A stretch of DNA of 64,000 bases, taken from NCBI GenBank assembly GCA_951406725.2, contig OX597837.1, positions 36,022,001-36,086,000 of the forward strand, in the 5' to 3' direction. Below the pieces are notes generated by a model. That model was not told where the DNA came from. It saw only the letters and a list, made by a program, of their open reading frames with translations, and did no database searches. The position numbers and the translations under genes were made by a program. The stretch is from Octopus vulgaris. Taxonomy: Eukaryota. Shown here piece by piece: positions 5,395-55,617 of this stretch. Numbering within the stretch: position 1 is the first letter of the stretch; the number at the start of each line of letters is the position of its first letter.

Positions 5395-6255
5395 CATCAT
5401 CATCATCGTTTAACATCTGCTTTCCATGCTAGCATGGGTTGGACGATTTGACTGAGGACTGGCGAACCAGATGGCAGAGTTTCTACAGCTGAAGGCTCTT
5501 CCTAATGCCAACCACTCCAAGAGTGTAGTGGGTACTTTTACGTGCCACTGGCACGAGGGCCAGTCTGGTGGCACTGGCAATAGCCTTGCTCAAGTGGGTT
5601 TTTTTTTTTACGTGCCACTGGCACGAGGGCCAGTCTGGTGGCACTGGCAATAGCCTTGCTCAAGTGGTTTTTTTTTTTACGTACCACTGGCACGAGGGCC
5701 AGTCTGGTGGCACTGGCAATAGCCTTGCTCAAGTGGGTTTTTTTTTTTTACGTGCCACTGGCACGAGGGCCAGTCTGGTGGCACTGGCAATAGCCTTGCT
5801 CAAGTGGTTTTTTTTTTTTACGTGCCACTGGCACGAGGGCCAGTCTGGTGGCACTGGCAATAGCCTTGCTCAAGTGGGTTTTTTTTTTACGTGCCACTGG
5901 CACGAGGGCCAGTCTGGTGGCACTGGCAATAGCCTTGCTCAAGTGGTTTTTTTTTTTTACGTGCCACTGGCACGAGGGCCAGTCTGGTGGCACTGGCAAT
6001 AGCCTTGCTCAAGTGGGTTTTTTTTTTACGTGCCACTGGCACGAGGGCCAGTCCAACAGCACTGGCAACAACTTCGCTCGAATGTTTTACACAACACTGG
6101 TAACAATCACGTTTGAATGGTACTTTTTATGGCAGCGATGACACTCGGATGGTGCTCTTAGTGCTCCACTGGCACAGGTGCCAGTCTTCGAATTTATGAA
6201 TTTGATTTGATTTCGATTTCACTTCCCTCAATAGGTCTTCGCAAGCAGAGTTTAG
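5395..6255 (-). mobile_element. SINE-like family E ((GAT)n tail) with internal tandem expansion
   Basis: (CAT)n-GTTTAAC..CCATGCTAGCATGGGTTGGAC..CTTCCTAATGCCAACCAC shared with copies at 10570, 14575, 15565, 35482 and 42895. Confidence 0.85.
5537..6058. repeat. Tandem array of 69-71 bp unit, 7 full copies plus a partial eighth
   Basis: CGTGCCACTGGCACG starts at 5541, 5611, 5680 (one substitution), 5751, 5821, 5890, 5960 and 6029; units otherwise differ mainly in T-run length. Confidence 0.97.
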
Positions 6256-7295: not shown

Positions 7296-7537
7296 TCATA
7301 TATATATATATATATATACATACATACATACATACATATATATATACATATATATATACATATATACTTGCATCTATACGTATATATATATATATATATA
7401 TACATGCATTTGTAGACACAGGATGTCATGAAACGTGTACAACAAAAAAATACAAAGCATGAGTACATGGAACATGAGCTATTCTTTCAAACAACAAAAG
7501 ACACAAATGGAAAACAAGACAAACAACATAAAGAACG

Positions 7538-7600
7538 ACCCTTCATCAGTTGTTGGCTGTTTTTCTAGTCTTGTATTTCGAGCATTTAACAACAATATAC
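7538..7600 (-). ncRNA. Candidate non-circularly permuted hammerhead ribozyme
   Basis: GTAT-A-TTGTTG ttaaat GCTC-GAA-ATAC [17 nt] CAACAA-CTGATGA-A-GGGT; stems III (4 bp), I (6 bp) and II (4 bp with two G-U) are all in register with the core. Confidence 0.7.
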
Positions 7601-7987
7601 GCTTACGATAAAGCAGTTACTCCTGCAAAGCAAATTAAATAAAATTTGGGATTTTTACAGAGAGTCAAAATAGGTAACACAAACAGGACAGTGAAAACAA
7701 ACAGGAAGGACTGCTAAGCCTAAACGATATTCTGGTGGTGAATGTGTAAATCAAGCGTGGGCAGGAGACAGACAAGAACATGTCTTCCTTGTTCCAGCTA
7801 TAACGGAGAGAAAGAAAGAAACACAAGTTAGGAGAAGAAAGATGGTCAAAGGTCACGTGGGAGCAAGGGAAGAGGAATGAGGGAGAGAGAGTGACAGAGC
7901 AATAGGAAAGAGCAGTGGAAGAAGAGGAGGTAAACGAATAAGAGAGAAAGAGAAAAATGAAAGAGTAAAATGATATATATATATATT

Positions 7988-18548: not shown

Positions 18549-18585
<37 letters not shown>

Positions 18586-18609
18586 AAAAATATATATATA
18601 AAAAAAAAT

Positions 18610-18714
18610 ACAAAAATGGGACAAGAACGCAAAACACTCAAATAGACGACACAAAAAACGGACATGTCATTCGAAGCCTCTAATTTCGGCTGATTAATTT
18701 TGAGATCGCTCCGA
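18610..18714 (-). mobile_element. Internally deleted copy of the Penelope-LTR-like family at 55300-55540
   Basis: Shares GGACAAGAACG..CATTCGAA and AATTTCGGCTGATTAAT..TGAGAT, but lacks the TCTTCAGTCAAGA segment. Confidence 0.75.
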
Positions 18715-28129: not shown

Positions 28130-29220
28130 TCCTGCAAACAACATTAATCCCTCTCTCTTTCTCTCTCTCACTCTCTCTCTCTCTCTCACTTCACTTGAGC
28201 GAAAAACTTAGGCCTCAAACATTATTAACTACTGCCCTTCACCATACTTGAGTGAAAACTACTCCCTTAACCATTATTAATCTCTCTCTTTCTTACTCTC
28301 TCTCTCTCTCTCTCTCCCTCACCTAAGTTGAACGAAAACTTCCCTTAAACATTATTAACCTCTCACCCTCATCTCAGTTGAGTGAAAACTCTTGCCTTCC
28401 TTTAACCATTTTTAACCTCTTCCCTCACCTCACTCGAGTGAAAACTTGCCATAACTGTTTTAAACCTCTTTCCCTCATCTAAGTCGTATAAATGCTCTTG
28501 CCTCCACTCAACCATTATTAACCTCTTTTCCTCATCTCAACTGAGGGAAAACTTTGCTTAACAAATTATTAACTTCTCTCTCCCCCATCTCAGTTGAGTA
28601 AAAACCCTAACCCTCCCATCAACCATTATTAACCTCTTTCTTCCTCCTCTCAATTGAGTGAAAACTCTTGTCTCCCCTCAATTTTCATTAACTCCGCTCT
28701 CACTCAAGTTGAGTGAAAACTCGTCTTAATCATTATTAACTTCTCAACCTGATCTCAAGTGAAAACTCTTGCCTCCCCTCAATTTTCAATAACTCCACTC
28801 TCACTCAAGTTGAGTGAAAACTCGACTTAATCATTATTAACTTCTCGACCTGATCTCAAATGAAAACTCTTACCTCCCCTCAATTTTCATTAACTCCTCT
28901 CTCACTCAAGTTGAGGGAAAACTCATCTTAATCATAATTAACTTCTCAACCTGATCTCAAGTGAAAACTCTTGCCTCCCCTCAATTTTCATTAACTTCTC
29001 TCTCACTCAAGTTGAGGGAAAACTCATCTTAATCATAATTAACTTCTCAACCTGATCTCAAGTGAAAACTCTTGCCTCCCCTCAATTTTCATTAACTCCT
29101 CTCTCACTCAAGTTGAGTGAAAACTCGACTTAATCATTATTAACTTCTCAACCTGATCTCAAGTGAAAACTCTTGCATCACCTTAATCCCCTTAAACCAT
29201 TTATAACCCCATTTCCTCAA
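28130..29220. repeat. Satellite-like array: diverged ~50-58 bp monomers followed by about 5 homogeneous 101-bp dimers
   Basis: GATCTC at 28751, 28852, 28953, 29054 and 29155; each monomer has GTGAAAACT...ATTAAC. Confidence 0.95.
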
Positions 29221-53122: not shown

Positions 53123-54368
53123 ACCCCAGTGCGTAACTGGTACTTAATTTATCGACCCCGAAAAGATGAAAGGCAAAGTCGACCTCGGTGGAATTTGAAC
53201 TCAGACTGTAGCGATGGGTAAAATACCTATTTCTTTATTACCCACAAGGGGCTAAACACAGAGGGGACAAACAAGGACAGACATAGGTATCAAGTCGATT
53301 ACATCGACCCCAGTGCGTAACTGGTACTTAATTTATCAACCCCGAAAGGATGAAAGGCAAAGTCGACCTCGGTGGAATTTGAACTCAGAATGTAGCGATG
53401 GGTAAAATACCGCTAAGCATTTCGTCCAGCGTGCTAATGATTCTGCCAGCTCACCACCATAACAGTAATAATACAAGTGCATTACAACTTATTGGAAAAG
53501 AGTAAAAAAGAAAAGTGAGAAAATGGCAATACATCAAGTAAAGAAAGACACCAATGAAGGGGAGAAGTATGTGCAGAGCAAACTGAATAAAACTGAAAGG
53601 GACAGAAAAGGGAAGAGCGAAAAAGGGCCACGAAGAGGAAAGGATGTATAGACATGAGTAGTGTTGGAGAATTTCATAAAATATAGAATTTTTGATGGAT
53701 GCAGGATGCTGACAGCTAACAACTGCCACAGGTAATTTATTCCACGCTTCGACATTTGTTTGACATAATATATAGGAGCGTGTTATGGCGGCGAGCTGGC
53801 AGAGACGTTAGCACGCCGGGCGAAATGCGTAGCCGTATTTCGTCTGCCGTTACGTTCTGAGTTCAAATTCCGCCGAGGTCGACTATGCTTTTCATCCTTT
53901 CGGGGTCGATAAATTAAGTACCAGTTACGCACTGGGGTCGATGTAATCGACTTAATACCTATGTCTGTCCTTGTTTGTCCCCGCTATGTTTAGCCCCTTG
54001 TGGGTAATAAAGAAATAGGTATTTCGTCTGCCGCTACGTTCTGAGTTCAAATTCTGCCGAGGTCAACTTCGCCTTTCATCCTTTCGGGGTCGATAAATTA
54101 AGTACCAGTTACGCACTGGGGTCGATGTAATCGACTTAATACCTATGTCTGTCCTTGTTTGTCCCCGCTATGTTTAGCCCCTTGTGGGTAATAAAGAAAT
54201 AGGTATTTCGTCTGCCTTTACGTTCTGAGTTCAAATTCTGCCGAGGTCGACTTCGCCTTTCATCCTTTCGGGGTCGATAAATTAAGTACCAGTTACACAC
54301 TGGGGTCGATGAAATCGACAGGCATCATCCTCCCAAATTTCGGGCCTTGTGCCTAGAGTAGAAAAGGA
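53123..54368. mobile_element. Two opposed family D SINEs with 184-bp internal tandem units (53123-53458 -; 53787-54368 +)
   Basis: GTATTTCGTCTGCC at 53835, 54019 and 54203; ACCCCAGTGCGTAAC at 53123 and 53307. Confidence 0.92.
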
Positions 54369-55237: not shown

Positions 55238-55305
<68 letters not shown>

Positions 55306-55383
55306 GGTATGTAGAAAAATACAACATGGACAAGAACGTATAACTCAAGAAAACGATACAATAAACACGGACAGGACATTCGA

Positions 55384-55455
55384 AACCCTCAGTCTTCAGT
55401 CAAGAACCGGATCATCGTAGTAATTTCGGCTGATTAATCTTGAGATTACTAGATC
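55384..55455 (-). ncRNA. Candidate non-circularly permuted hammerhead ribozyme in a (TA)n-flanked insert (55300-55540)
   Basis: TAGTAAT-C-TCAAGA ttaatc AGCC-GAA-ATTACTA [12 nt] TCTTGA-CTGAAGA-ctgag-GGTT; stem III 7 bp, stem I 6 bp, AUC triplet. Confidence 0.68.
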
Positions 55456-55539
55456 ACGGCCAGCCCTCCAAGAAAAACTAAGCAACGAGCATTAGAAAAA
55501 CTAAGCTGGGAGCGTAGATTTCCTGGAAGAAGGATCGAA

Positions 55540-55617
<78 letters not shown>

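Follow-up and report, generated by a model that had tools for sequence, protein, structure and literature searches.

A likely split-core hammerhead ribozyme in Naiad-related retroelements of Octopus vulgaris

Introduction

Type SGC hammerhead ribozymes, in which the cleavage-site (S), GAAA (G) and CUGANGA (C) blocks follow one another in that order, have been demonstrated by cleavage and by compensatory mutants (Eckert 2023, PMC10085705). In the sections of that work drawn on here, block C (the stem I strand, CUGAnGA and the stem II strand) is assumed to be unbroken, hence six possible orders, and the known alignments carry at most 1–2 inserted nucleotides next to CUGAnGA. Its sequences were taken from metatranscriptomes, metagenomes and RefSeq and include only two of type CSG; the words “octopus” and “animal” occur nowhere in the main text, nor do “octopus,” “Mollusca” or “Metazoa” in one supplement file. 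The plus-strand hammerhead of CChMVd offers a small precedent for an interrupted block, as an extra A between A9 and G10.1 is compatible with cleavage according to part of a review (PMC3705267).

The elements that concern us are also partly described. Naiads are Penelope-like elements that target (TA)n; in the sections of Craig 2021 (PMC8557442) used here they have no canonical hammerhead, only “HHR_core” or “HHR_half_core” words in some, and those of cephalopods are described as long inactive. The non-LTR retrozymes of animals are non-coding tandem units with one hammerhead each, and excerpts of two reports propose circular RNAs that are copied by a Penelope-like reverse transcriptase (RT) (Cervera and de la Pena 2020, PMC7229834; bioRxiv 10.64898/2026.07.22.740005). 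Within the portions of the openly licensed PMC and bioRxiv literature covered, including Perreault 2011 (PMC3088659) and Cervera 2014 (PMC4209133), we found no permuted hammerheads in Naiads; the same literature yielded no helix inserted between A9 and G10.1.

Here we analyze a motif at 55384..55455 of a 64,000-nucleotide stretch of Octopus vulgaris DNA (the window). Like the SGC and CSG ribozymes as far as described in PMC10085705, it has the hammerhead core, a reversed cyclic block order, stems I and II connected by a short linker, and a further helix (here P4) that is predicted to join the other sides of these stems. Unlike SGC, its block C appears to be broken between A9 and G10.1 by a helix, P5 (plus a hairpin, P6), and the layout as modeled is outside Eckert's six permutations. 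The CChMVd insertion occupies the same backbone position but is one nucleotide, whereas the octopus motif would place there a one- or two-helix domain carrying the RNA ends (compared with PMC3705267, in part). Retrozymes, in the part of PMC7229834 considered, have type I hammerheads in units of ∼170–400 nt, in contrast to the ∼650–840 nt units and permuted, split core of the octopus families.

Results

We located the three blocks and both linkers on the minus strand exactly where the first-pass annotation, which called the blocks A, C and B, had placed them, with a stem III of 7 bp, a stem I of 6 bp, an AUC triplet and a predicted cut between 55444 and 55443. An A-C-B descriptor that combined the core words with at least 5 Watson-Crick pairs in stem I and at least 4 in stem III matched the window twice (H17 at 55444 and 7596), and found no match in 60 dinucleotide shuffles. 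The second match bears out the motif noted at 7538, which was said to share the topology and is a copy of family 2 (see below). Rfam scanning of the window at E≤5 returned no hammerhead family among the 150 listed of 463 rows; those 150 are driven by microsatellites and score below the gathering thresholds. For the linker from block G to block C, a type II (C-A-B) reading was ruled out by eye, as its stem I hairpin does not form.

Stem II had been drawn downstream of CUGANGA, either as GGTT/AGCC after a 5-nt insertion or as CTGA/TCAG with CC bulged, and neither register was confirmed. The first provides only two Watson-Crick and two GU pairs at offset 5, no pair forms directly after CUGANGA (offsets 0–1) in the window copy, and the GG assigned to stem II is part of the P5 3′ strand. 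A 5-bp Watson-Crick partner that starts with G sits upstream (Table 1). Across family 1, the stretch 0–2 nt from A9, where an SGC ribozyme has its stem II strand, offers 0–1 bp. The copy near 18675, invoked as a sister with a perfect match, has lost its entire CUGANGA block to an internal deletion, so it gives no intact second example. Likewise, the GATC before stem III, taken for an extension of that stem through ATC/GAT, is better placed in the separate helix P4. The best-supported fold thus has the stem II strand detached from CUGANGA and shifted 5′. A-C-B is not supported as the fold, nor is it a new class, since the topology as first drawn is already known as type SGC, validated in 2023 (PMC10085705, in the sections drawn on here).

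From the fold and the comparisons given below we consider it likely, with good confidence, that the motif is an active hammerhead ribozyme whose stem II 5′ strand is predicted to come from upstream, with a closing helix that interrupts the core between A9 and G10.1. The predicted order is the P5 5′ strand, an optional P6 hairpin, the stem II 5′ strand, the P4 5′ strand, block S, a short linker, block G, the P4 3′ strand, the stem I 3′ strand with CUGANGA, and the P5 3′ strand (Table 1). As modeled, this layout would be a circular permutation of the CSG/SGC/GCS class whose RNA ends exit through P5. The core would be kept, with P5 and P6 bulged out at the A9/G10.1 step, and, by analogy with Eckert's helix I, the S-to-G linker together with P4 would replace the usual loop-loop contact in holding stems I and II.

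Table 1. Coordinates of the predicted ribozyme elements and of related element copies in the window.
Feature	Position	Strand	Remarks
P5, 5′ strand	55541-55535 and 55533-55529	minus	Closes the domain between A9 and G10.1; from the MFE fold
P6 hairpin	55466..55528	minus	10-bp base (55528-55519 with 55475-55466); directly before G10.1; from the MFE fold
Stem II, 5′ strand	55461..55465	minus	Begins with G10.1; upstream of the cleavage block
P4, 5′ strand	55452..55460	minus	Predicted to tie stems I and II together; has a single bulged base in this subfamily
Block S	55438..55451	minus	Stem III 5′ strand, C17 at 55444, stem I 5′ strand
Linker and block G	55418..55437	minus	5-nt linker, stem II 3′ strand (55432-55428), GAAA, stem III 3′ strand
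P4 3′ strand to core	55393..55413	minus	P4 3′ strand (55413-55406), stem I 3′ strand (55405-55400), CUGAAGA core (55399-55393)
P5, 3′ strand	55377..55390	minus	55390-55386 and 55383-55377; from the MFE fold
Family 1a copy	55305..55541	minus	237 bp, 5′-truncated, between two (TA)n runs; 99.6% identical to a natural unit elsewhere
Family 1b copy	18581..18684	minus	Older sister copy; deletion removes the P4 3′ strand, stem I 3′ strand and CUGANGA
Family 2 copy	7399..7825	minus	Older family, same layout; H17 at 7596

The motif is carried by a short copy of an element, family 1a, whose full unit is 839 bp, non-coding and tandem, with one ribozyme per unit. An exact 25-mer search of the 2.8-Gb genome gave 85 matches (control 0), corresponding to 74 insertions, and the copies are mostly 97–100% alike, indicating a very young family; it has no sequence similarity to family 3. 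Their 3′ end is fixed ∼140 nt after the predicted cut, adjoining (TA)n, while 5′ ends vary, and 14 of the 74 insertions exceed one unit (one of these if a downstream unit that was not seen is assumed, another with an alignment of just 85%). Insertion at (TA)n, a fixed 3′ end, 5′ truncation and partial tandems are thus all found in family 1a, as in the Naiads characterized in the sections of PMC8557442 used here. Unlike autonomous Naiads, family 1a encodes no N-terminal GIY-YIG, CxC linker or RT open reading frame. The proposed Penelope link therefore stands with respect to the Naiad clade, but not as a linked RT/GIY-YIG ORF, of which the non-coding family 1 has none.

Families 1a, 1b and 1c together form lineage 1; family 2 is represented by the 7538 motif, family 3 is the published octopus Naiad end, and family 4 has a 784-bp unit with 1,168 exact matches. 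The genome contains 151 perfect copies of a 23-mer from the published Octopus Naiad 3′ end (control 0). The published octopus Naiad ends (PMC8557442, in part) carry the split ribozyme layout, which in family 3 lies 3′ of RT remnants; the RT fragment matches RVT_1 at E 2e-5, below the curated cut-off. Two more octopus families with the split layout and new stems, relatives of family 2, were seen by eye (L263:2760-2990, and L352 around position 1107 on one strand). Family 1c also occurs as a local array (L335-L338, G000 C27, ∼25.60–25.62 Mb) in which a ∼1.3-kb repeat, holding two ribozyme copies and a microsatellite, occurs at least nine times, a secondary satellite-like amplification. The window holds other tandem arrays at 5536-6053, 28657-29187 and 53835-54319, with units of 70, 101 and 184 bp. 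Finally, the family 1a unit (L018:900-1740) is tiled over its whole length by four near-identical contigs at depth 636–1034, all from one run that we guess to be RNA; this tiling would fit abundant unit-length RNA, the contigs showing neither strand, ends nor level.

All CUGANGA, GAAA and NUH core nucleotides are present in the octopus families and in the metagenome copies with an intact core (see below). Every octopus family has an upstream stem II partner of 5–6 Watson-Crick base pairs, starting with G, 21–26 nt before the cut, and in families 1, 2, 3 and 4 this strand is followed by P4, whose other strand immediately precedes the 3′ strand of stem I. The placement is the same in families 2, 3 and 4 and in the metagenome copies with different stem sequences, the stem II sequence differing between families and always starting with G-C (G10.1-C11.1). 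We shuffled the upstream 40 nt 5000 times and scored for both stem II and P4: 82 of the 5000 shuffles did as well for family 1b, 31 for family 2, 141 for family 3 and 66 for family 4, giving a combined p of 4e-5, or 2e-4 if the window copy (654) replaces 1b. Support is weak for single sequences such as family 1c (269 of 5000) and the window copy, the latter because its P4 is bulged.

Thermodynamic folding gives a similar picture, with exceptions. The MFE fold of 55545-55370 (z −2.57) contains the upstream stem II along with P5 and P6, and in a nested-only ensemble of the window copy the probability that C11.1 pairs with the upstream G is 0.56, versus 0.000 for the 8 nt after A9. Under nested folding the upstream stem II has a probability of 0.56–0.99 in four of the six copies folded and of 0.00 in the 1b and family 4 copies. 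Covariation was scored in six copies of 1a, 1b and 1c, five of them distinct; the structure was derived from these same sequences, and kinship can inflate the counts. In this alignment 97% of cells are paired and seven pairs are changed on both sides, which none of 500 shuffles equaled, while slid controls are 29–49% paired. The both-side changes fall in P5 (one, between 1a and 1b, with 100% of cells paired), P4 (three among 1a, 1b and 1c), stem III and stem I; P6 is absent from the 1c sequences and therefore optional. Stem II is invariant within lineage 1, so its support comes from the between-family comparison only. Stems I and III vary on both sides within lineages, and family 4 stem I exists in two compensated forms (32/47 and 10/47). 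The first-pass reading of a conserved permuted hammerhead on (TA)n-inserting retroelements, with covariation between families, is supported, the permutation being a non-circular one.

Over 1.23 Mb of loci picked through these families, and so not a random sample, we counted 74 distinct split-form matches and 11 contiguous ones, compared with 0 in 0.63 Mb of shuffles. Of the split-form matches, 37 could also make a 4-bp downstream stem II, and families 2 and 4 have such an alternative, with GU pairs, after a 1-nt insertion.

If a cut RNA serves as template for insertion, insertions should start just past H17, and we therefore mapped their 5′ ends. In family 1a, 22 of 74 lie at +1..+16 (hazard 0.032/nt, p 1e-12), as against 19 at +17..+94 (0.004/nt), one at −22..0 and four at −100..−23 (0.001–0.002). 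Restricting the count to TA/AT microhomology sites, in an earlier version of the census, left 13/131 versus 9/619 and 2/1041. For family 4 (first 70 of 1,168 matches), 12 ends fall at +1..+16, 21 at +1..+24 and one at −22..0 (p 3e-4), and there is no TA/AT run within the first 16 nt past the cut. An initial family 4 pattern had given 13 matches, with 2 of 12 insertions ending at 0 and +9, and a pattern shifted by one base was used instead. In the metagenome family, 7 of 68 copies start precisely at +1, and 20 do so within −1..+3 (p 4e-7), counted over the 68 of 80 loci with enough flank and with a pattern blind to ends beyond +3. The old Naiad family 3 (first 70 of 135 matches) shows no pile-up, with 3/70 ends at +1..+16 and a hazard of 0.003 versus 0.004–0.008 elsewhere. 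The accumulation at the predicted site in three of the four families tested (1a, family 4 and the metagenome family) is an indirect trace of RNA ends and suggests that the ribozyme likely cuts itself in cells. The octopus pile-ups are offset rather than exact (+3..+16 in 1a, +1..+24 in family 4), which may reflect trimming and annealing to (TA)n. A functional reason for the window copy to start at P5 was dropped, as upstream 5′ ends are scattered. One family 4 copy (L381) has an inversion junction exactly at +1 of the predicted cut.

We searched for a coding parent that could mobilize these units. Apart from one unrelated neighbor, no RT was found in the 85 family 1 and 2 loci and the window, and alignment of the family 1a census to the unit revealed no coding 5′ extension. 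A tblastn-type search with the family 3 RT fragment (150 scored of 2725) and a GIY-YIG family search (150 scored of 6136 candidates, 10 loci inspected) found no intact Naiad ORF, nor was a coding parent of family 1 found in 20 regions around RT matches and the 10 GIY-YIG loci. Two young Penelope-like families with C-terminal GIY-YIG (L136-L147 and L162) have ORFs of 753 and 781 aa, of which the former was inspected and the latter at its C-terminal end alone; the first family ends in (TA)n. As coding parents these elements were rejected, showing no homology to family 1 in the stretches compared, and the hammerhead descriptor had no match on L136-L147. They are candidates for mobilizing the non-coding units in trans.

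To place the octopus motif among Naiads in general, we viewed by eye approximately the last 300 nt of 53 of the 54 Naiad consensuses (PMC8557442). The split layout is visible in eight (Bfor, with a very short stem I, 3_Chem, Amil, Aacu, Anas, 2_Movir, Obim and Ovul), and P5 and P6 can be made out in the Bfor, 3_Chem and Acropora consensuses. Six nematode Naiads (1-3_Nbra, Hcon, Hpol and Asuum) appear as clean type CSG with P4, Asuum having one extra base after A9, and the spider Naiad Smim as SGC. The remaining 38 ends are ambiguous or without a hammerhead in the ∼300 nt viewed. The 3′ end of Naiad-1_Movir presumably belongs near twister, to judge from its look, and Naiads may employ either the hammerhead or the twister class. 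The bivalve, hemichordate and Naiad-2_Chem consensuses have a common non-hammerhead motif close to their 3′ ends (PMC8557442 supplement, in the part considered).

Scanning metagenomes with the Acropora Naiad motif yielded at least 80 loci with flanks, mostly from one assembly. Fifty-two span the ribozyme, and in 35 of these the core is intact. Not one downstream base pair forms in 33 of the 35, and 21 have an upstream stem II of 5–8 Watson-Crick base pairs, the rest being truncated or decayed. The flanks of this coral-type family are not (TA)n, and RT remnants similar to the family 3 RT lie upstream of the ribozyme in two loci (L486 and L456).

Discussion

Three other readings of these data deserve weighing, all of them improbable. 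The one that survives best, though still unlikely, is a non-catalytic or dead fold, derived from a hammerhead and retained for RT binding or as a stop signal, the pile-up arising from RT stalling or from an AU-rich linker annealing to (TA)n. Such a fold would accommodate the lack of a pile-up in family 3, and in family 1a the ends do gather on the AT-rich linker at +6..+11, 13 of 23 of them at TA/AT sites. Yet family 4 piles up despite having no such linker, the metagenome ends fall at the exact nucleotide next to flanks that are not (TA)n, and TA/AT sites elsewhere in the unit are used 7–50 times less. By +11, moreover, an RT would already be beyond every 3′ helix strand of the core, and the catalytic bases and NUH triplet are preserved in all families.

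A little less probable is a switch, in which the split fold alternates with an SGC-like or inactive fold through competition of the downstream strand with P5, so that only some transcripts cut and the rest become read-through templates. The passage of 33 of the 74 insertions through the site would agree with this, as would the fact that in families 1, 2 and 4 the downstream strand resembles its upstream counterpart in stem II; circles or slow cleavage explain the read-through equally well, however, and the second strand is missing from family 3 and the coral-type family. Least probable of the three is a plain SGC hammerhead with its stem II downstream after the 5-nt insertion or with the CC bulge: it is a validated natural form (PMC10085705, in part), seen by eye in the spider Naiad_Smim, and a 4-bp downstream match exists at offset 5 in 1a, 1b and 1c and at offset 1 in families 2 and 4, but family 3 offers no such partner (at most 2 bp within 6 nt), nor do 33 of the 35 metagenome copies, it is the upstream and not the downstream strand that runs on into P4, and the bases downstream of CUGANGA pair in P5.

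The split-core ribozyme is accordingly our preferred reading, and we predict that it acts as a CSG/SGC-class hammerhead within a retrozyme-like derivative of a Naiad element. In the life cycle that we propose, transcripts would be cut after C17, and a host ligase would circularize the monomers, as shown for type I retrozymes in the part of PMC7229834 considered. A Penelope-like RT, likely of Naiad type and acting in trans, would nick (TA)n and prime in the AU-rich patch ∼140 nt 3′ of the cut. On a linear, cut template it would run off at the cut, which could give rise to the 22 of 74 insertions that start there, and on an uncut or re-ligated circular template it would read through, as 33 of 74 may have done, with 14 of 74 extending beyond a single unit.

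On balance, and with more reserve than for the motif itself, we favor a broader picture in which Naiads are where the non-circularly permuted hammerheads of animals naturally reside. Nematodes would have type CSG, spiders type SGC, and octopus, corals, box jellyfish, hydrozoans and comb jellies the split core, with insertion of a helical domain at A9/G10.1 as a seventh connectivity. Cleavage would take place in vivo and would power the circular-RNA cycle of non-coding elements that are still spreading. If true, this would answer a point raised in the sections of Craig et al. 2021 (PMC8557442) used here, namely why many Naiads seem to be without the hammerhead of other Penelope-like elements: the “missing” ribozyme would be present in many of them, invisible to standard descriptors. 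The natural examples of CSG would rise from two sequences to whole families of animal retroelements, and a CUGANGA-stem II block that can be interrupted, contrary to what has been assumed, would provide a new attachment point on the core for RNA engineering. The start points of inserted copies would, in turn, constitute a readout of ribozyme cleavage that needs the genome only.
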